Below, in pieces: positions 31,882 through 58,148 of a DNA stretch of 64,000 bases. A program made the translations under genes and the position numbers. The stretch is from an uncultured Fibrobacteraceae bacterium (lineage in GTDB: Bacteria > Krumholzibacteriota > Krumholzibacteriia > LZORAL124-64-63): contig CAYWTR010000015.1 of assembly GCA_964461255.1 (NCBI GenBank), positions 6,983 through 70,982 on the forward strand. Direction: 5' to 3'. Every line of letters starts with the position of its first letter. The stretch's first letter is position 1. The notes beneath the pieces were generated by a model. The model did no database searches. It had not been told where the DNA came from and saw only the letters and a program-made list of their open reading frames with translations.

Positions 31882-32856
31882 ATGCAAACCAAGGCCGCTG
31901 CTGTTCTGGCGGTTGTCGTGCTGATCGGCATGACGCCAGCGATGGGTTCGGCCCTCGCGCCCTACAGCCAGGATTTCGAGGGGCTGGCTCTGCCGTCGCC
32001 CGGCGGACTGCTCGGCGACGGCTGGCTTGTGTACGGCAACGTCTTCAGCCCGGGCGGGACGTACCTGTACGGATACGGTCCTTTCCCGGCGCCCAACGAC
32101 GGCGCCGCGTTCTGCGCCATCGCCGCCGACGAGGGAGGGGCAGAACAGGGCGCTCACCAGCTGTCCGTCTACAGCGATTACAACAACGGCGATCACGCCG
32201 CCGGCAATCTGATCGAGGCCAACGTCTTCCAGGAGCAGACGATCCTGCCCGCAGATGTCGGCAACGTCTGGATCTTCGAGTTCCAGGCCAAGCTCGGCAA
32301 CCTGGTCGCCCCCTCGACCGCCGCGGCCTTCATCAAGACGCTCGATCCCGGCGCCGGTTACGCCATGACCAATTTCATCACCGCGGACATGACGGCCATT
32401 CCCACGACCTGGTCGGGCTACTCCTTGTCGATCACGATCGATTCGAGCCTGGCGGGTCAGATCCTGCAGTTCGGATTCATGAACACGGCGACGCTCTACG
32501 TATCGTCAGGCGTCTTCTACGACAACGTGAACTTCCGCCTGAGCACGGCGACCGACGTGCCCGGGGGCGACGCCGCGCGCGGCGCGATGCTGCGCCAGAA
32601 CTATCCGAACCCGTTCAACCCGTCGACACGGATCGACTTCGCGTTGGAGAGCGCGGGGCCCGTCGAGCTGTCCGTCTTCGACGCCGGCGGCCGCAGGGTC
32701 GCCACTCTGCTGCAGCGCAACCTCGCGGCCGGCGAGCACCATGCTGTCTGGAACGGGCGGACGGACGGCGGCCGGCCCGCACCCGCGGGCCAGTACTACT
32801 ACCTCCTGGAGACGGCGACGACGCGCATCTCCCGGGGCATGGTGCTGGTGAAGTAG
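31882..32856 (+). CDS. Secreted protein of unknown function with T9SS-type C-terminal sorting domain (paralog of 38219-38926)
   Basis: Signal peptide MQTKAAAVLAVVVLIGMTPAMGSALA. Core LAPYSQDFEGLALPSPGGLLGDGWLVYGNVF... C-terminus NYPNPFNPSTRIDFAL...GQYYYLL...SRGMVLVK. Confidence 0.6.
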   Translation: MQTKAAAVLAVVVLIGMTPAMGSALAPYSQDFEGLALPSPGGLLGDGWLVYGNVFSPGGTYLYGYGPFPAPNDGAAFCAIAADEGGAEQGAHQLSVYSDYNNGDHAAGNLIEANVFQEQTILPADVGNVWIFEFQAKLGNLVAPSTAAAFIKTLDPGAGYAMTNFITADMTAIPTTWSGYSLSITIDSSLAGQILQFGFMNTATLYVSSGVFYDNVNFRLSTATDVPGGDAARGAMLRQNYPNPFNPSTRIDFALESAGPVELSVFDAGGRRVATLLQRNLAAGEHHAVWNGRTDGGRPAPAGQYYYLLETATTRISRGMVLVK

Positions 32857-38111: not shown

Positions 38112-38218
38112 GCCGACGGCCGGTCGCCCCAGGCGCGCCGGCCGCCGCGTGCACGAGCCGATATAGGGAAGGGCCGCCTCCCTGACGGAAGACGGCCCTT
38201 GATTTGGGTCACTCCATA

Positions 38219-38926
38219 TCAGCGGAACAGCGACTTCACGCCGCCCCAGGAGCTTTCCTCGCTCGGCACCGGTGTGCCGGTGTAGAACTGCACGTCGTCG
38301 TAGAAGACGCCCGACGGCTCGTACAGCCGCGCGTGGCTGACGAATCCGAATTGCAGGATCTGGCCCACGAGGCCAGCGTCGATCGTGATCGTCAACGTGT
38401 GCGCCGACCAGGTCGTGGGGATGGTCGTCATGTCGGCGGTGATGTAGTTGGTCATGGCGTAGCCGGCGCCGGGATCCAGGGTCTTGATGAAGGCCGCGGC
38501 GGTCGTGCTCCCGGCCAGGTTGCCGAGCTTGGCCTGGAAGCTGTAGGTCCAGGTCTCGCCGACATCTTCAGCGGTGACGATTTGCTCCTGGAAGACGTTG
38601 GACTCGATGATGCCGTCGGCGTGGTTGCCGTTGTTGTAATCGCTGTAGACGGACAGGCATTGCCCGCCGATGCCTTCGCCGGCGACGATCGCGCAGAACG
38701 CGGCGCCATCGTTGGGGGCCGGGAACGGGCCGTAGCCGTACCACCAACCCCAGTCGTACCCGAAGACGTTGCCGTACACCAGCCAGCCGTCGCCGAGCAA
38801 CCCGCCCGGCGATGGCAGAGGCAGGCTCTCGAAGTCCTGCCCATAGGGCGCCAGCGCCTGGCTCGCCGCGGGCAGCAGGCAGACCAGCATGGCGGCCCCG
38901 AGGATGGAAGCGGTTCGTGCACGCAT
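38219..38926 (-). CDS. Secreted paralog of the 31882 protein, ending in the short SWGGVKSLFR tail instead of a T9SS domain
   Basis: Signal peptide MRARTASILGAAMLVCLLPAASQALA. The core is about 65% identical to 31882-32856. C-terminus ...TGTPVPSEESSWGGVKSLFR. Confidence 0.6.
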   Translation of the reverse strand: MRARTASILGAAMLVCLLPAASQALAPYGQDFESLPLPSPGGLLGDGWLVYGNVFGYDWGWWYGYGPFPAPNDGAAFCAIVAGEGIGGQCLSVYSDYNNGNHADGIIESNVFQEQIVTAEDVGETWTYSFQAKLGNLAGSTTAAAFIKTLDPGAGYAMTNYITADMTTIPTTWSAHTLTITIDAGLVGQILQFGFVSHARLYEPSGVFYDDVQFYTGTPVPSEESSWGGVKSLFR

Positions 38927-50209: not shown

Positions 50210-50353
50210 CGATCTTCTCCCGCTCGCGGCCGCGGGCCCCTCCCGGCAGCATGATCTGTATGATAGCGCCGCGGCGCCCGAAGGCGAAAAGCAAAACAGA
50301 GAAAAGGCCGCCTCCCCTCAGGGGAGGCGGCCGGGAGAGTGGTCAAGCCACGG

Positions 50354-51352
50354 TTAGCGGTACATGGACTTGGTGCTGCCCCAGCTGTTGACCTCGGTCG
50401 GCACCGGCGCGTTGACGATCATGTGGTAGGTGCCGCAGACGTCAAGGCCGTAGGCGTCGACGATCAGGTACAGCGTGACCGGCCCCTCGCCCTCGTTGGT
50501 CCAGGAGACGGTCTCGGTGGCACCGCCGCAGCAATTATCCGAGCCGTCCACGCAGGTGCCCGGAATGTCCGCGCAGTCGGTCACCAGGTAGAGCGACATG
50601 TCGACCGTGCCGCTCTGCGAGGCGGAGAAGGTCTCGCCCGGCCCGATCGTGATCTTGTAGACCACGTCCTTGCCCGCCGCCGGGTAGCCGGTGCAGCTCG
50701 GCGTGCCCGGCGTGTAGGTGTTGTTGGCTTCGCAGGTGTTGACATCCCACTCGACCAGCCCTTGCTCCTGCAGATCGATGGCGCCGTCGCAGGTGTCGTT
50801 GACCGGCGGCGGCGGGGGCGGTTCGCCCTCGGTGATCGTCAGGTTGAAGGACGGGATGCACGTGGGCGAGGGCCAGGTGTCCACCATGATGTAGTAGCTG
50901 CCCGGCTCGAGCGTCAGGCCCAGGATCTCGCGCGGCAGTCCGGACGATCCGGTGCGGATGGCGATGCAGCTCGCATCCAGCGGACACGCATCGTCGATGG
51001 CGATGCCGGTCCACGTCGTGCCCAGCGGGTCCATGACGATGTCGACGATCGTCGTCGTGGTGATGTCCAGCCGGTAGATGATGTCCTCGCCGCCGTCATA
51101 GTAGCCGAGGCAGGTGTCGAAGTAGTTGTTGCCCCGCCCGCAGGTCGTCTGGCCCAGGTCGCTGAACGGCAGGCTGCTGATGACGATCGGGCTCGTGCAG
51201 TCGTCCCCTTCCGCCCGCGAGCCTTCGGCGGCCGGCGGCACGATGACCGTCGGGCCATGCTTGGCATCAGGCTTTTCGGCGTAGGCGGCCGCGGCCAGCC
51301 CCAGGACGAGCAGCGGAAGCAGCGGGGTGACGAGCATTCTGGCTGTCTTCAT
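50354..51352 (-). CDS. Secreted tandem PPC-like (pre-peptidase C-terminal-type) domain protein ending in SWGSTKSMYR
   Basis: Signal peptide MKTARMLVTPLLPLLVLGLAAAAYA. Two repeats with the DxxYxxxI ... GxYYIxVD pattern. Confidence 0.5.
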   Translation of the reverse strand: MKTARMLVTPLLPLLVLGLAAAAYAEKPDAKHGPTVIVPPAAEGSRAEGDDCTSPIVISSLPFSDLGQTTCGRGNNYFDTCLGYYDGGEDIIYRLDITTTTIVDIVMDPLGTTWTGIAIDDACPLDASCIAIRTGSSGLPREILGLTLEPGSYYIMVDTWPSPTCIPSFNLTITEGEPPPPPPVNDTCDGAIDLQEQGLVEWDVNTCEANNTYTPGTPSCTGYPAAGKDVVYKITIGPGETFSASQSGTVDMSLYLVTDCADIPGTCVDGSDNCCGGATETVSWTNEGEGPVTLYLIVDAYGLDVCGTYHMIVNAPVPTEVNSWGSTKSMYR

Positions 51353-51690
51353 GGTGCGTTCCCTTCTCTGCGGTGATGGTGCGATGCTGCCCTGCGAATC
51401 GCCCGCCAGGCGATCCCGGCAAGCCAGCGCGGTAGCGATGCTCACTATGGCTGGGTCCGACCTCCTTACTCCACGCATTGTCATCGTGGAGACAAGAACA
51501 ACGAAGGCGCGCAACGACGGCCGCGGCCGCGCTGTCGCACGTATCCAGGCGGGGAACTCAATCATAGCACATGCCGCTGCGAGATTCGCCCCCAAAGCGC
51601 ACGGCCGGTCCGATATCCCATGGACCCGCTAGGGGCGTTGCCGCGACCGGCCGTCCCCTTCCTCTTCCGGCAGCCGGTGGCCGCGGCAAG

Positions 51691-51728
51691 GCACGGCCCC
51701 CTCTGCGCCGTGGCAGAGGGGGCCGTTG
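51691..51728 (-). terminator. Strong GC hairpin (14-bp perfect stem ACGGCCCCCTCTGC/GCAGAGGGGGCCGT, 6-nt loop) just downstream of the 51756 gene end
   Basis: Inverted repeat read directly. There is no U-tract, which is common in high-GC genomes. Confidence 0.4.
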
Positions 51729-51755
51729 CGCTCGTCGAGCTGTCCGATTCCGCTC

Positions 51756-52727
51756 CTACCGGAACGTGCTCTTGACCTGGCCCCAGCTCGAAGGCGTCCC
51801 CGAAACCGGCGCGTCGATGGTGACCAGGGAGGTCCCGCAGCCGCCGGCCGCGTAGCCGTCGATGACCAGGTAGTACACGCCGTCCGCCTCCGCCACGTAG
51901 GTGAACGTCTCGGGGTCGTCCCCGCCCGCCACGCACGAGTTCATGTCGGAGCAGTCGGTCAGCAGATAGATCGCCGCGTCGTAGTTCTCGCCCGTCAGCG
52001 TCACGGCGATGGTCTGCCCGGCGTTGAGGTAGATGCTCCAGACCGCGTCATCGCCGTTGGCCTGGCTGTAGCCGGTGCAGCCGTTGGTCGGGCTGTAGTT
52101 GTTACCACCGCCGCAGGTGTTGACCTGGAATTCCTGCAGGCTCTGATCCTGCAGATCGATCGCGGTCGCGCAGGTGGGATTCGGGTAGGGCACTCCCGCG
52201 GTGATGGTCAGGTTGAAGGCCGGAATGCAGGCGGGCGCCGGCCAGGTGTCGACCATGATGTAGTAGCTGCCCGGAGCGAGCTCCAGGCCCAGGATCTGCC
52301 GCGGCGCGGAGGACGAACCCGTGCGCACGGCGAGGCAGCCGGAGAGCGCCAGCGGGCATTCATCGTCGATCGCGAGGCCGGTCCAGGTCGTGCCCAGCGG
52401 ATCCATGACGATGTCGACGGCCGTCGGCGCGGCGATGTCCAGGCGATAGATGATGTCCTCGCCGCCGTCATAGGAGCCCAGGCAGGTATCGAAGTAATTG
52501 TTGCCCCGCCCGCAGGTGGTCTGGCCCAGATCGCTGAAAGGCAAGCTGTTGATGATGATCGGATTCGTGCAATCGTCCCCGACTGCCCGCGAACCCTCCT
52601 CGGCCGGCGTGACGATGACCGTCGGGCCGTGGTCGGCTTCGGGCTTCTCGGCGGCGTACGCGGCCGCGGCCAGTCCCAAGACGAGCAACGGAAGCAGCGG
52701 CACGATGGATATTCTGGCTGTCCTCAT
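51756..52727 (-). CDS. Secreted tandem PPC-like domain protein ending in SWGQVKSTFR (tandem paralog of 50354-51352)
   Basis: Signal peptide MRTARISIVPLLPLLVLGLAAAAYA. About 75% identity to the downstream paralog in the first domain. The duplication includes the 5-prime leader. Confidence 0.5.
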   Translation of the reverse strand: MRTARISIVPLLPLLVLGLAAAAYAAEKPEADHGPTVIVTPAEEGSRAVGDDCTNPIIINSLPFSDLGQTTCGRGNNYFDTCLGSYDGGEDIIYRLDIAAPTAVDIVMDPLGTTWTGLAIDDECPLALSGCLAVRTGSSSAPRQILGLELAPGSYYIMVDTWPAPACIPAFNLTITAGVPYPNPTCATAIDLQDQSLQEFQVNTCGGGNNYSPTNGCTGYSQANGDDAVWSIYLNAGQTIAVTLTGENYDAAIYLLTDCSDMNSCVAGGDDPETFTYVAEADGVYYLVIDGYAAGGCGTSLVTIDAPVSGTPSSWGQVKSTFR

Positions 52728-53004: not shown

Positions 53005-55911
53005 TCAATGGTCCCGCACGGCCGCGACCTGACTGCTGGTGGGGCGTCCGGCCGCGATAAACCCGCACCAATTGGCAGGATGCGCGTCCCTGCCGGCCGC
53101 GCGGCGCGCGACGAGGCTGGCCAGGGAAGCCCTCCTGGCGGCGGACGCGGTGTCCAGGCCTTCCTCCAGCAGCGTTCTGTAGAAGGCCGTCATCCACGCC
53201 AGCGCGCAGTCGTCCGGGACCGGCCACAGGCTCATGACGACCGCTGCCGCCCCCGCGATCTGGAAGGAGCGTCGCAACCCCAGGACCCCTTCTCCACCGG
53301 TCGCCACCCCCAGGCCGCTCTCGCACGCCGACAACACCACCAGGTCCACCCCGGTCAGATCCAGCGACACCACCTCCTCGGCCGTCAGAAGCCCGTCGTC
53401 CGGAGTCCCGTCTGTCGCGGCGGGTGCCGCATAGGCCGGCAGGCCACGATTGGCTCCCGCCAGCGCCAGCCCGCACATCGCCAGCGGGTTGTCCGGGACC
53501 GGCGCTTCGCGGGCGGAGAGCAGGGCGGTCTCCAGCCCGGCGGCGGCGGCGCAAGCCTCATCCCAGAAGAAGCCGTGCGTCGCCAGATGCAGAACGGTCT
53601 TGTCCGGCGCCGCCCCCGCGAACGCGGTCTCGGTGGCCTCGGATCCCAGGAGCAGGGTCGCCGTCCCGCGTGCGCCCGGAACCGTGGACCACATGCGGGC
53701 GATGACCGACGCCTCCTGTCCGCTTCCCGGCAACGGCGAGAAGGGTGAGCCGATCACGCCGTCGCAGGGGCCTCGCCGTCTGTCCTCCCGCGCAGAATCG
53801 GGAACCGGTCCATCGGCAAGCGGCTGGGCGTCGTAATCCGGCTCTCCCAGGACGAGCAGGCCGCCGGCGCCAGGCCTGCCGTCGCCGGGGCGGCCGCCAT
53901 CGCCGCGGCGGGCCGCGCCGTCTCCCGCCATCAGTTCTCGCTCCCCTGTCAAGTAGGTCAGCGGCGGCGCCGTTTCGATCAGATAGCGCATCGGCGATCC
54001 GCGGGCCGGCAGCGCCTCGAAGCCGACCAGGCCCAGGGCACCATCGGGCACCACGAAGACATGGCGCGCGCCCTCCAGACCTGCGGCCAGCGGATCCCAG
54101 ATCCTCGCCCGCAGCGCCTCGCCCGCCCGGCGGCTTCTCGACTCCCGACGCGCGGACTCGCCCAGCCGAGCGGGAGGTCGATAGAGCTCGCGGCGCCAGT
54201 TCGCGACCAGCGTGTCGATCTGCGCGGCCGCGCCCAGGACGAGCAGCGTCATATCCTTCCCGGCGTGTCGACCCAGGAGAAACGCGGCATAGGCCGGCTC
54301 GGACCCGCCATCCTCGCCTTGCCGCCAGAACCGCACATAGGACAGCAGCGCTGCACCGGCGGGCAGCGCCTCCGCCGGCCGCGCGGGGGGCGGCGCGCTC
54401 TCGCCCTCCTCCACCCGCTCGGCCAGCGACCTTTCCAGCGCGTCGCGCTTGCGGCGCAGCGAGACCAGCCTCGCCTGGTAGTCCTCCAGCGACCGGGCGC
54501 CCGACCCGCCGAGGATCGATTCCGCCAGCTCCTTCCGGCAGGCGGCCAGGCGATTGATCAGCTCGCCCTCGCGCCCTAGCCCGCGCACGCGCCGCTGGCG
54601 CGCGGCCATCTCTTCCAGCACGATCGCGCGAGAGATGCGCAGCGCGTCCCAGGCAGCGGCGGCGTCCCGGGGGCGGCCGGTTGCGGCCGCGATGGTCAAG
54701 GCCACGTCCAGGCCCGCCGGGCGCACGGCGCCATAGCGCAGCGCCTCGCGCTGGGACAGTCCGCGCGCCATCGCGCGCAGGTGGCGGCAGCCGATCTGCT
54801 CGACCCGCAGGGCGGTCGCCAACGCGCCGGCGCTGTCGCCCGCCGCCAGTTGGGCGCGCGCCTGGGCGTGCAGGGCCGCGGCCAGCTCCGGATGCCCCGG
54901 CCCGTGCACCCATTCCCGCAATCGAACGGCCTGGAGGCAATGCGCGACCGCAGCCCGCGCGTCGCCCCGCCGCAGCGCCGTCTCGGCCAAGGTCAGCAGC
55001 GGAATGGCCAGTTCCCAGTGCTGCTCGCCCTGAGCCGCCCGCCAGGTCGACAGCGAGGCCTGCCCGGCGGCTTCCGCGTCCTCCGTGCGACCAAGCTCCA
55101 GCAGGCAGCGCGCCACGCTGCTGTGCGACGCTGCGACCTCACGGTGAATCTCGCCCAGCGCCGCCCGACGCTTGTCGCGCGCCGCCTCCAGCAGCGGCAG
55201 CGCCCCGCGCGCGTCTCCGCGCGCCAGCGCGAGGTTGGCCAGGTTGTCCAGCGTGGCGATCGTCTCCGGATGCTTCGCCCCGAGCTGACGCTCGCGGATG
55301 GACAAGGCTCTGGCGTACGAGAGGCGCGCCTCTTCGAAATCACCCAGCTCGTGCAGCAACATGCCGATCTTGTTGGCGGTCTTGCCGACCTCGTGATGCC
55401 CGGCGCCCAGCGCCCGTTCCTGCAGCGCGAGCTTGCGCGCGAAGAGCCGCCGCGCGGCGGTCAGATCCCCGCGGTCCTGCAGCACCGAGGCCAGCTCATC
55501 CAGGGCACGCCCGGTGTCCAGGTGGTCGCCCCCCAGCTCGCGTTCGATGATGGCCAACGACCGCAGCGCCAGCGCCTCCGTTTCCGGTTCGGCCGAGCGT
55601 CCCCGGAGCCGCAGAACCGCGATCATGTGCATCTGCGCAGAGGCGGCGGCGAGCGATCCCTCCCCCTGCTCGCGCTGGGCGCGGGCCAGAACCTCCCAGC
55701 CGGCGGCCTCCGCCTCCTCCAGACGTCCCTGGACCTGCAGCGAGAGCATCCGCTCCAGGCCCGGCAGCAGCGGCAGAGAGGTCGGAACGGGTGCGATGTC
55801 GGCCGCGCGCGTTGCGGCCGCGGCCAGGACGATGAGCAGCGCGGCCGGCAGCAGGATCGCCGCGCCCGGCCTTCGGCATGCCACTGGCGCGGCCCGATCG
55901 CGTCTTGGCAT
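53005..55911 (-). CDS. Exported TPR-repeat plus CHAT-domain protein (caspase-like His/Cys dyad)
   Basis: N-terminal signal/TM (MPRRDRAAPVACRRPGAAILLPAALLIVLAAAATRA). More than 8 TPR units. C-terminal CHAT domain with LHLATHGFF and LVVLSACESG. Confidence 0.7.
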   Translation of the reverse strand: MPRRDRAAPVACRRPGAAILLPAALLIVLAAAATRAADIAPVPTSLPLLPGLERMLSLQVQGRLEEAEAAGWEVLARAQREQGEGSLAAASAQMHMIAVLRLRGRSAEPETEALALRSLAIIERELGGDHLDTGRALDELASVLQDRGDLTAARRLFARKLALQERALGAGHHEVGKTANKIGMLLHELGDFEEARLSYARALSIRERQLGAKHPETIATLDNLANLALARGDARGALPLLEAARDKRRAALGEIHREVAASHSSVARCLLELGRTEDAEAAGQASLSTWRAAQGEQHWELAIPLLTLAETALRRGDARAAVAHCLQAVRLREWVHGPGHPELAAALHAQARAQLAAGDSAGALATALRVEQIGCRHLRAMARGLSQREALRYGAVRPAGLDVALTIAAATGRPRDAAAAWDALRISRAIVLEEMAARQRRVRGLGREGELINRLAACRKELAESILGGSGARSLEDYQARLVSLRRKRDALERSLAERVEEGESAPPPARPAEALPAGAALLSYVRFWRQGEDGGSEPAYAAFLLGRHAGKDMTLLVLGAAAQIDTLVANWRRELYRPPARLGESARRESRSRRAGEALRARIWDPLAAGLEGARHVFVVPDGALGLVGFEALPARGSPMRYLIETAPPLTYLTGERELMAGDGAARRGDGGRPGDGRPGAGGLLVLGEPDYDAQPLADGPVPDSAREDRRRGPCDGVIGSPFSPLPGSGQEASVIARMWSTVPGARGTATLLLGSEATETAFAGAAPDKTVLHLATHGFFWDEACAAAAGLETALLSAREAPVPDNPLAMCGLALAGANRGLPAYAAPAATDGTPDDGLLTAEEVVSLDLTGVDLVVLSACESGLGVATGGEGVLGLRRSFQIAGAAAVVMSLWPVPDDCALAWMTAFYRTLLEEGLDTASAARRASLASLVARRAAGRDAHPANWCGFIAAGRPTSSQVAAVRDH

Positions 55912-56180
55912 CACAGATTGTGATACCAAGGTGAGAACCGCCCGCGACCTGCCTGCATCCCCGGCGGTCACGCCCGCGCCAACGCCGCGGCCGGCGACAA
56001 CCAGGGGCAGCGGCAAGCCAGCAGGGATATCGCGCCATGGCCGCAGCGAGAGGGGCCGCGCGGCCGCGCGCGCGCGCCGGCGAGGCCGCTCGCGCGGGCG
56101 CCGACGGCGCCGTCCGCCCCCGCGACCAGATGGCCGCGGGGGCGGCGACAACCGGCCGGCCTCGCGCCCGCCGGGAGATG

Positions 56181-58148
56181 TCAACGGACCAGCATGATCT
56201 TCTTGGCGTCCAGCTTGCCGTCCGCTTCGAGCTGAGCCAAATAGGCGCCCGAGGCGACGGGGCGGCCGGTCTGATCCAGGCCGTTCCAGTCGACCGCGTG
56301 CTCGCCTGCCGTGAACGCGCCTTCCGCCAGCGTCGCGATCAGCCGCCCGGAAAGGTCGCGCACGACCAGCTGCGCATCTTGCGGGCGGGCCACCGTGAAC
56401 ACGATCCGCGTCTGCGGGTTGAAAGGATTCGGGTGCGCTCCCACCACGCGCGTCAGCAGCGCGGGAGCCGGCACCTCGGCCGTCTGGCTGCTCAGCAGGG
56501 TCCAATCCCCGCCGGCGGCCTGCAGATAGAGCGCGTAGGTGACGGTGGCGCCCGGTTCGGCCTGCGCATCCACCGCCTGGAAGCTGCCCGCGCCGACCTG
56601 CTGGTAAGGCACTTCCCAGCTCGCATCGCCTTGGCTGGCCAACAGCCGGAACACCGGCGCGGCCGCTTCGTCGCCCACGCGCCACGTGATGACGACGCCG
56701 TTCGCGTTGGGCGCTAGGTGGAAGACCGCCAGGTAGTTCGACACCGCGGTGGGGACGATCAGGACGAAGGCCCCCTCGACGACCACGCGCTGCGGATCCT
56801 CGAGTTCGGCCAGATCGCCGTCGCTCAGACCCGCCTGCTCCCGCGCCGCGAGGCTCGCCGGCGGCGCCTGCGGCTCGCGCACGAACGCCGCTCCCGAGGG
56901 GATGTCGACGTTGGCCGTGAAGTAGACGCGCGTGTAGGCGTCGCCGCCGCGATCGCCCAGGGCCAGCGACGCGATGCCGGTGATGTCGGTGATGACGGCG
57001 CCGGCGTCCGGCACCAGGTCGCCGTCGATGTCGACCTCCTGCCCGACCTTGAGCAGGGGCTGGTCGTTGACGAAGAGCGTCTTGGCGGTGCCCGTCGCGG
57101 TCACGACCGGCCAGACGTAGGCGATGTCGCCGTCGGCGTTCATGTAGGCCATGGTGATCCCGCCGGTGACGACGGCGCCGCCGATGTCCATCCCCTCGCG
57201 GTACAGGATCACACCGTCCTTGCAGATGAACTCGTCGATGGCCGTGGACGCGCTGGTGTCGCCGGTGAACATGTAGCTGCCCGATTCCGTGATGCCGGTG
57301 TAGTCGAAGTTCTGCCAGTTCTCGCCCGGCAGGCCGCCGATGGCCTCAGGCACCGGCCGGCCCTCGCCGACGATCGAACCTCCGGCGAAGATGCCCGCTC
57401 CGTCGATCACGATGTAGTTGTTCAGCGAGCTTGTTTCGGTGGTCTCGACCTTGCCTATGTAGTGCGTCCCCAGCGGTGAGAATCGATAGTCGAAGGCGAT
57501 GGTATTGGCGGTCGAAAGCGGCGCCGGGATGTTCGGCAGCGTCATGCCCCCGATCAGCAGCGGCGTGGCGCTGTAACCGTAGAACAGGCCGCGGTTGGAG
57601 GTCGAGCCGGTCTGCGTCGTGCGCACGCCGCCGACGAAGTACGGAATGCCGTCCGCGGTGATGCCGGGCCGGCTGCCGAACGACCACCACAGGCCCGGCG
57701 CGTGCGGATAGACCTCCTGCTCGTTCATGATGGAGACGTCGTTGACCCAGACGCCGTCGAGGCTGGTGGCGCCGCTGTCAAGGTTGGTGGAGAGAGGGCT
57801 GTACGCGGTCAGACCGGCGTCGCTGAAGCCGTAGAACGACTCCCAGGAAGCCTGCGCGTACGACCCGTACGTTCCCTCGGTCCAGAGCACGGCGCCCGGC
57901 CCGCCCGTGGGGCTGCCCCACGAGCGGCTCAGCGTGACGATGCCATCCGAGGTGTCGACCCGGAACGCGTAGCCGCCGGCATGGTTGGCGGCGCCGCCGT
58001 GGATGGAGCTGACGTTGTGGCCGGGCGGCGCGCCGGGCAGCTGATCGCCGTCCTTGAACATCAAGGTCGCGATCTGCCCCTGGCACGGCACGGATGAGGC
58101 GGCGACCAGCAAGGCCGCCGCGGCGAAGAGCATGAACCTCCCGCGCAT
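56181..58148 (-). CDS. Secreted protein of unknown function with T9SS-type C-terminal sorting domain
   Basis: Signal peptide MRGRFMLFAAAALLVAASSVPCQGQ with an AAGGGGG RBS. C-terminus HPNPFNPQTRIVFTV...GAYLAQL...KKIMLVR. Confidence 0.55.
   Translation of the reverse strand: MRGRFMLFAAAALLVAASSVPCQGQIATLMFKDGDQLPGAPPGHNVSSIHGGAANHAGGYAFRVDTSDGIVTLSRSWGSPTGGPGAVLWTEGTYGSYAQASWESFYGFSDAGLTAYSPLSTNLDSGATSLDGVWVNDVSIMNEQEVYPHAPGLWWSFGSRPGITADGIPYFVGGVRTTQTGSTSNRGLFYGYSATPLLIGGMTLPNIPAPLSTANTIAFDYRFSPLGTHYIGKVETTETSSLNNYIVIDGAGIFAGGSIVGEGRPVPEAIGGLPGENWQNFDYTGITESGSYMFTGDTSASTAIDEFICKDGVILYREGMDIGGAVVTGGITMAYMNADGDIAYVWPVVTATGTAKTLFVNDQPLLKVGQEVDIDGDLVPDAGAVITDITGIASLALGDRGGDAYTRVYFTANVDIPSGAAFVREPQAPPASLAAREQAGLSDGDLAELEDPQRVVVEGAFVLIVPTAVSNYLAVFHLAPNANGVVITWRVGDEAAAPVFRLLASQGDASWEVPYQQVGAGSFQAVDAQAEPGATVTYALYLQAAGGDWTLLSSQTAEVPAPALLTRVVGAHPNPFNPQTRIVFTVARPQDAQLVVRDLSGRLIATLAEGAFTAGEHAVDWNGLDQTGRPVASGAYLAQLEADGKLDAKKIMLVR

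Follow-up and report, generated by a model that had tools for sequence, protein, structure and literature searches.

A short C-terminal tail on unrelated exported proteins of uncultured bacteria: a candidate envelope-docking peptide

Why should exported proteins with different bodies end in the same short peptide, and what does the cell do with it? This question is raised by a 64,000-nucleotide (nt) stretch of contig CAYWTR010000015.1 (assembly GCA_964461255.1, positions 6,983 to 70,982), assigned to an uncultured Fibrobacteraceae bacterium and called here the window. Three proteins encoded in it, p1, p2 and p3, carry the motif SWGxxKSx[FY]R immediately before the stop codon. C-terminal sorting and anchoring signals determine the final place of bacterial exported proteins, and those recognised earlier led to new machinery, namely sortase, exosortase, rhombosortase and the type IX secretion system (T9SS). 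Based on the results below, the tail is a portable module, and we tentatively suggest, with slightly less than even confidence, that it is an envelope-docking or anchoring peptide rather than a cleaved secretion signal.

All three genes lie on the minus strand. The p1 gene (38219..38926) encodes a 235-amino acid (aa) protein ending in SSWGGVKSLFR, the p2 gene (50354..51352) a 332-aa protein ending in NSWGSTKSMYR, and the p3 gene (51756..52727) a 323-aa protein ending in SSWGQVKSTFR. A six-frame regular-expression scan of the window, which has a G+C content of 70%, gave exactly three matches to the motif, each abutting the stop codon, and two looser versions of the motif were found in the same three places only. 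The possibility of a chance motif was rejected, since the back-translated pattern was observed 3 times against 0.00 expected in 100 dinucleotide-preserving shuffles. The 323-aa and 332-aa products have the same boundaries in public gene calls on independent assemblies, and Sec-type signal peptides are present on all three proteins. The reading frames, their endings and their signal peptides are therefore as stated in a preliminary description of this locus. The same description regarded the proteins as otherwise unrelated. This holds for p1, whose common ground with the other two is limited to the last 17 residues, but not for p2 and p3, which are paralogues with 62% identity over the full length (E = 3e-125). 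Consequently, the window contains two independent occurrences of the tail, not three, and it is other genomes that lend the finding its statistical weight.

The preliminary description proposed a conserved tail of 11 residues. The tail is real, but these residues are only the core of a longer unit of about 17 residues, which opens with Pro-Val at positions −17/−16 and has the consensus P-V-x-[TV]-E-x-x-[ST]-W-G-x-[VIL]-K-[AS]-[LM]-[YF]-R before the stop, with [APS] as the third position. The 17-residue tails are PVPSEESSWGGVKSLFR in p1 (38222..38272), PVPTEVNSWGSTKSMYR in p2 (50357..50407) and PVSGTPSSWGQVKSTFR in p3 (51759..51809), all on the minus strand. The p1 family yielded 1690 matches, and its tail statistics refer to the 120 sequences listed. 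Its members share about 60% identity across phyla, and nearly all of them end in the tail: 92 of the 120 have the strict form, and most of the others have slight variants in which the terminal Arg is missing, Met stands at −6 or, rarely, Lys is replaced by Arg. Lys at −5 is near-invariant (2 Arg substitutions among the 120 sequences), and about 20% of the p1-family tails among the matches listed depart from the terminal Arg. The two substituted endings are SWSRVRSLFQ and SWSEVRSLFR (P0182 and P0195), while other members stop at VKSLF or VKSLY. Homologues of p3 were found in genomes labelled Krumholzibacteria, Latescibacteria, Eisenbacteria and Zixibacteria; the tail forms the end of 63 of the 120 homologues listed and is internal in none.

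To what extent is the tail bound to the C-terminus, and on how many kinds of proteins does it occur? A species-level scan (one genome per species) with a DNA pattern made of the back-translated tail and a stop codon recovered at least 120 loci, all of them from uncultured metagenome-assembled genomes (MAGs). The submitters' labels among the matches listed were Eisenbacteria (about 27), uncultured Fibrobacteraceae (17), Krumholzibacteriia/ota (14), Latescibacteria (4), Gemmatimonadota (3) and Cloacimonadota (2). Isolated matches labelled Ignavibacteriota, Planctomycetota, Verrucomicrobia and Patescibacteria may be binning errors. Four MAGs with a single match (L017, L044, L092 and L098) bear the labels Kerfeldbacteria/Patescibacteria, Verrucomicrobia or Planctomycetota; because the neighbouring genes, for example in L044, encode T9SS-type cargo typical of the Fibrobacteres–Chlorobi–Bacteroidetes (FCB) group, mis-binned contigs seem more likely in these cases than a true non-FCB occurrence.

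For the locus counts, a looser regular expression that did not require Pro-Val was applied to 833 kb of related loci. It matched 162 times directly before a stop codon and 5 times elsewhere, and four of these five are the same tail with 2–5 extra residues. Shuffled translations gave about 0.8 matches in total and none before a stop. In addition, a hidden Markov model (HMM) of the tail, with 18 positions and no protein-end information, was searched against 1.84 billion representative proteins and returned 209 matches at E ≤ 1e-3, which, given how short the profile is, represent only the upper end of the distribution. The best 150 of the 209 comprise 4 unrelated repeat proteins and 146 genuine motifs; among the latter, 123 end on the last residue, 19 within 1–5 residues of it and 4 are internal, so that 142 of 146 reach the C-terminus or stop no more than 5 residues short of it. 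A search with a 40-aa tail profile gave 9 candidates, all of them small fragments. The carriers themselves are diverse. A Sec-type hydrophobic leader is present in 118 of the 131 complete carriers, and 144 carriers with their tails removed fall into 65 clusters without mutual similarity. Their median length is 234 aa, and ten cluster representatives had almost no Pfam matches except PPC/P-domain and beta-helix ones. The enrichment proposed for checking in the preliminary description is thus present and strong. We also observed a Cys residue no more than 9 residues upstream of the Pro-Val in 79 of 159 carriers of the 120 loci, often as CxC or CC; it may form a disulfide closing the folded body ahead of the linker.

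The next question is how the tail relates to the T9SS C-terminal domain, since the window also holds five protein endings of the FlgD_ig/Por_Secre_tail (T9SS) type, the number given in the preliminary description. A paralogue of p1 with 64% identity is encoded at 31882..32856 on the plus strand (324 aa). Its alignment with p1 spans the body and continues into the linker, where the two proteins split: the paralogue proceeds into a T9SS-type domain of about 85 aa (FlgD_ig), whereas p1 has SSWGGVKSLFR and the stop. This is a module swap within one genome. The same swap was found in p1-family proteins of other genomes (P0154, P0162 and P0203), and several further cargo bodies encoded at the 120 loci are found with the one ending or the other. 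In the data examined, the tail and the T9SS domain were never together in one protein. The genes for p1 and its T9SS-ended paralogue are about 5 kb apart in a glycan-utilisation neighbourhood, where both versions come from one genome.

Could the tail be the start of a T9SS domain truncated by a premature stop? We rejected this explanation. Each stop codon is followed by a hairpin on the minus strand: a GC-rich, terminator-like one with a 14-bp stem about 18 nt past the p1 stop (38169..38200), an intrinsic-terminator-like one (12 bp, 11 of them GC) with a T-run past the p2 stop (50306..50332), and a GC-rich one with a 13-bp stem about 30 nt past the p3 stop (51694..51725). The next gene starts only 108–145 nt past the stop for p1 and p2, and the hairpins and short gaps leave no room downstream of these two genes for an 80-aa domain. 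Furthermore, at the junction where p1 has the tail, its paralogue carries a complete T9SS domain. The tail does not resemble the beginning of that domain and is conserved across phyla. Together with the shuffle result given above, these observations make an artefact of either kind, chance or truncation, vanishingly improbable. It was noticed that the three hairpins look alike, with GGCC-rich stems (GGCCGCCTCCCC...GGGGAGGCGGCC).

It could also be proposed that the tail is a minimal T9SS signal, imitating the last strand of the T9SS domain and using the T9SS itself. T9SS-type cargo is very often encoded at the same loci as tail genes, with five such proteins in the window, and the two endings are comparable: the T9SS domains here end in L-[VIL]-[KR] and the tail in [LM]-[YF]-R, a hydrophobic-hydrophobic-basic pattern in both. 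In Porphyromonas, the last residues of the T9SS domain are essential for secretion. Dependence on the T9SS core components for secretion, and removal of the domain by PorU, are further marks of proteins with this ending. Compared with the type A domain (TIGR04183/PF18962, detected here as PF13860 FlgD_ig), the tail is likewise a C-terminal module of Sec-exported FCB proteins, is distributed over many unrelated cargo families and occupies the same junction on paralogous bodies. However, the T9SS domain is a folded immunoglobulin (Ig)-like beta-sandwich of about 80 aa (70–100 aa as a fold criterion), while the tail is a linear peptide of 11–17 aa, for which AlphaFold2 (AF2) predicts a linker and an 8-residue helix, and the two are dissimilar in sequence and by HMM. 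A scan of 148 diverse 40-aa tail segments, each on its own, at E ≤ 10 gave no match to a T9SS model. Moreover, the presence of paralogues with both endings in one genome suggests different fates for them. We therefore regard the use of the T9SS by the tail as improbable, and the distinction between tail and T9SS domain, already drawn in the preliminary description, is retained.

Is the tail then a part of its carriers' folds? In the AF2 model of p1 (pLDDT, predicted local distance difference test, 87.9), a jelly roll/beta-sandwich covers residues 28–216, followed by a linker (217–226) and a helix (227–234) at pLDDT of about 63. The model of p3 (pLDDT 85.5) has two beta-sandwiches with the last strand at 299–305, a linker at 306–314 and a helix at 315–322 at pLDDT of about 65. 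Thus, in two unrelated carriers the tail helix is predicted at about 63–65, against more than 90 for the bodies, and in these models the tail is a flexibly tethered, exposed peptide outside either fold. A structural role of the tail in its carriers, as a homo-oligomerisation helix or a fold-completing strand, could draw on the short helix in the models, but it is highly improbable: the peptide follows a low-confidence linker and is unpacked on the body in two unrelated folds, and the same sequence is found on 65 unrelated bodies. The idea of an amphipathic helix was also considered and was not used as evidence, as the hydrophobic moment of the tail is no different from that of shuffled sequences, about 14% of which reach it.

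The bodies could be related to known folds. Fold searches placed the p1 body close to the carbohydrate-binding modules (CBMs) CBM16, CBM22 and CBM4, and the p3 body close to CUB-type modules and to the collagen-binding domains arranged in tandem in ColG. The p1 protein is a stand-alone CBM-like jelly-roll protein, p3 consists of two beta-sandwich domains (PPC, PF04151; ColG collagen-binding-like) and its paralogue p2 has tandem PPC/collagen-binding-like domains. Both p1 and p3 are apparently stand-alone non-catalytic binding modules, and the carriers in general are mostly small and apparently non-catalytic.

Does the tail belong to any signal already named? The preliminary description could not match it to one, and our searches agree. 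No relevant match to Pfam or NCBIfam was obtained for p1–p3 at E ≤ 1, and the tail did not match the NCBIfam CTERM models. In the scan of the 148 segments, no family was matched by more than 2 members; the top one was NHL repeats, and these lie in the bodies. No description of the motif was found in the searchable literature, nor anything relevant on tail peptides, IPTL-CTERM or T9SS in these phyla. The tail is thus absent from Pfam, NCBIfam and the searchable literature.

The tripartite signals (PEP-CTERM/exosortase, GlyGly-CTERM/rhombosortase, MYXO-CTERM, IPTL-CTERM and LPXTG/sortase) have in common with the tail a short C-terminal signature on diverse exported proteins, a lineage-restricted distribution and many copies per genome. 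Unlike the tail, they include a transmembrane (TM) helix and a basic cluster. In the tail, nine residues after the Trp, including Lys, lead to an end at Arg without a TM segment. Because it lacks both the helix and the basic cluster, there is nothing to keep the tail in the membrane within reach of an intramembrane sortase, and the exosortase- or rhombosortase-type mechanism put forward in the preliminary description is unlikely. The tail also differs from the beta-signal of outer membrane proteins, which combines a terminal aromatic residue with a transmembrane beta-barrel: most carriers end in Arg, and their bodies are soluble beta-sandwiches, jelly rolls or beta-helices.

Distant relatives of p3 end in other ways, either with a dockerin (PF00404) or with a TM helix and a basic cluster. 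In seven of them, related through the p3 N-terminal domain (P0075, P0077, P0078, P0086, P0087, P0089 and P0115), the sequence PVPVSNWA or IPLSNWA precedes the helix, and the PVPVSNWA signature is similar to the P-V-P-x-x-x-x-S-W-G of the tail. Such endings hint that the tail may have been derived from a tripartite CTERM signal, or the reverse. They also seem to resemble the IPTL-CTERM signal, but this suspected link is not supported by NCBIfam, as no named CTERM model there matched the TM-type endings of the distant p3 homologues. As for the dockerin, which tethers catalytic or non-catalytic cargo to a scaffold, it is a small C-terminal module with a repeatable short unit, like the tail, which it replaces in these homologues. 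Nevertheless, the dockerin is a duplicated, Ca-binding F-hand of about 60–70 aa, while the tail has 17 residues, none of them Ca-binding, and no cohesin-like partner is known for it; PF00404 had no match on p1–p3 or on the tails.

Further evidence on the function of the tail comes from carriers with more than one copy. A lipoprotein family with a lipobox Cys and a weak DUF4440/NTF2-like signal was among the top HMM matches and has unusual arrangements. Five of its proteins (P0244, P0245, P0249, P0251 and P0255) carry 2–5 tandem C-terminal copies separated by spacers of about 10 residues. Eight others (P0250, P0252, P0254, P0259, P0266, P0278, P0288 and P0310) are fusions in which a domain and a tail are repeated 2–3 times, and the internal copies are still full matches to the motif. 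Three more (P0246, P0295 and P0313) carry the terminal copy and a further one that directly follows the signal peptide. The conservation of internal and multiplied copies indicates that the motif is kept by selection without a free carboxyl end. Judging by these sequences, the tandem, internal and N-proximal copies would fit better with an avidity-driven binding or anchoring peptide than with a cleaved signal. In P0250, a Cys stands directly after the internal tail, as at the start of a mature lipoprotein, which suggests a possible fusion of tandem genes.

These copies bear directly on the assumption that the tail is a cleavable sorting or secretion signal. According to it, a dedicated translocon or sortase-like peptidase would read the free tail, bring the cargo through the outer membrane or onto it, and remove the tail, perhaps at the P-V-x-T-E linker. 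The overwhelmingly extreme C-terminal position, the diverse cargo with signal peptides and the swaps with the T9SS domain on paralogous bodies all speak for such a signal, and the conserved Pro-Val/Glu linker could be the processing site. On the other hand, selection has kept the tandem, internal and N-proximal copies, 1–5 extra residues past the Arg are tolerated, and the absence of a TM segment makes a membrane-embedded exosortase, rhombosortase or sortase unlikely. The machinery is not co-located either. We clustered 775 open reading frames from the 120 loci in search of a peptidase, sortase or receptor, and only generic kinases, ATP-binding cassette (ABC) ATPases and T9SS cargo recurred; for the sortase or peptidase anticipated in the preliminary description, no candidate is encoded nearby, either within the window or at the 120 related loci. 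A cleavable signal is thus rather unlikely, although it deserves to be kept in mind. Of the sorting, processing or anchoring signal foreseen there, the portable C-terminal module on proteins with signal peptides was borne out, whereas cleaved sorting fits less well with the tandem and internal copies.

Another kind of processing can be imagined, in which the tail is a short propeptide or degron, serving as a processing or quality-control tag read by a periplasmic PDZ-type C-terminal protease. Ctp/Prc proteases cleave short C-terminal extensions, such as those of pre-D1 and FtsI, and the length of 11–17 aa and the terminal position of the tail resemble these extensions. However, known PDZ proteases favour non-polar C-termini, while the tail ends in Arg. 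It is also hard to explain why one propeptide would be found on at least 65 unrelated families and in tandem or internal copies. This role is quite improbable.

Based on the above, we return to the envelope-docking or anchoring peptide and suggest the following scheme. The carrier would be exported by Sec and then fold, leaving the tail exposed. The exposed tail might bind a shared envelope component or be cross-linked to it via the near-invariant Lys. The tether would hold binding modules on the cell, CBM-like in p1 and PPC/collagen-binding-like in p2 and p3, and could be another option beside the secretion and attachment that depend on the T9SS C-terminal domain. It is worth noting that p1 and p3, as non-catalytic binding modules, would be useful to the cell only if tethered. 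The portability of the tail, its C-terminal restriction, conservation, cargo diversity, association with signal peptides, interchange with the T9SS domain, detachment from the body and repeatability are directly supported. From these we infer the docking or anchoring role; what the partner is, in which compartment the tether lies (periplasmic face or cell surface) and whether it is covalent are likewise a matter of inference.

Several points weigh against this interpretation. No partner, receptor or enzyme was found, and neither the window nor the 120 loci showed a recurrent non-cargo family beside the tail genes. About 84% of the genuine HMM matches end exactly on the last residue, which hints that a free C-terminus matters, and this preference would suit a sorting or processing machinery that reads the terminus equally well. 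Multi-copy tails are rare, with 2 cases among 144 carriers in the set of loci, whose choice did not depend on copy number, and they cluster in a single lipoprotein family. The models give the tail helix modest confidence only, and its hydrophobic moment is unremarkable. Finally, all the evidence is comparative, and every carrier comes from an uncultured organism.

Known anchoring systems offer two further comparisons. The Braun lipoprotein (Lpp), ending in K-Y-R-K, also has a short C-terminal peptide with Lys, Tyr and Arg, and its terminal Lys attaches to peptidoglycan. Some tail carriers are lipoproteins, and their N-terminal lipid and C-terminal tail would, by analogy, give them the same topology as the Lpp tether between outer membrane and peptidoglycan. 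The attachment point differs, however, since the Lys of the tail is at −5, so that the likeness is an analogy and a covalent linkage in the tail is hypothetical. Choline-binding repeats and GW modules, which anchor exported proteins non-covalently and with avidity, resemble the tail as short Trp/Gly/Lys-rich C-terminal units, present alone or in tandem. In contrast to the tail, they are folded repeats of about 20–80 aa from Gram-positive bacteria, and there is no sequence relationship. Overall, the tail can be counted among the portable C-terminal modules for targeting and anchoring, a broad class, yet it is without the defining features of its known members: the folded T9SS domain, the TM helix and basic cluster of the CTERM signals, the F-hands of dockerins and the beta-signal of outer membrane proteins.

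It is conceivable, though a bolder proposal to be held with more doubt than belief, that the tail represents a previously unrecognised targeting system of diderm bacteria. In such a system, a linear peptide of about 17 residues, with no TM segment and no folded domain, would be read by a dedicated envelope receptor or enzyme, in parallel to the T9SS across several uncultured FCB phyla, and would decide between retention and secretion of binding modules. The partner might, for example, form a cross-link between the invariant Lys and a polymer such as peptidoglycan. If the invariant Lys were indeed a covalent attachment point, this would be a new envelope-tethering chemistry. The natural variants with Arg in place of Lys and those without the terminal Arg could be used to separate a chemical from a binding role of the Lys.

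The tag is short, very strongly conserved and present on dozens of unrelated families in several candidate phyla without cultured members. It therefore provides a sequence handle for annotating many hypothetical exported proteins and for a search for the partner by phylogenetic profiling. For Eisenbacteria, Krumholzibacteriota, Latescibacterota and related groups, it could also predict which modules that bind glycans or proteins remain with the cell.

Regarding the neighbouring genes, p1 is surrounded by glycoside hydrolases (GH1, GH2-like and GH17), a major facilitator superfamily (MFS) sugar transporter and a ROK regulator. Directly upstream of p3 and p2 and on the same (minus) strand, a large protein with tetratricopeptide repeats (TPR) and a caspase-like CHAT domain is encoded at 53005-56685. 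This arrangement with p3/p2 is kept in two other assemblies (L121 and L122), but the TPR-CHAT protein was not seen again beside tail genes at the other 120 loci, and we claim no functional link. Likewise, a resistance-nodulation-division (RND) pump encoded downstream in the window does not recur near tail genes elsewhere, and no link is claimed. In other genomes, the tail genes themselves often form tandem arrays of 3–6 small paralogues, as in L007, L060, L068, L070, L082, L086 and L092; there are four such genes in L007 and six in L068, and six were found within 8 kb of the closed MAG chromosome OZ244210.1.

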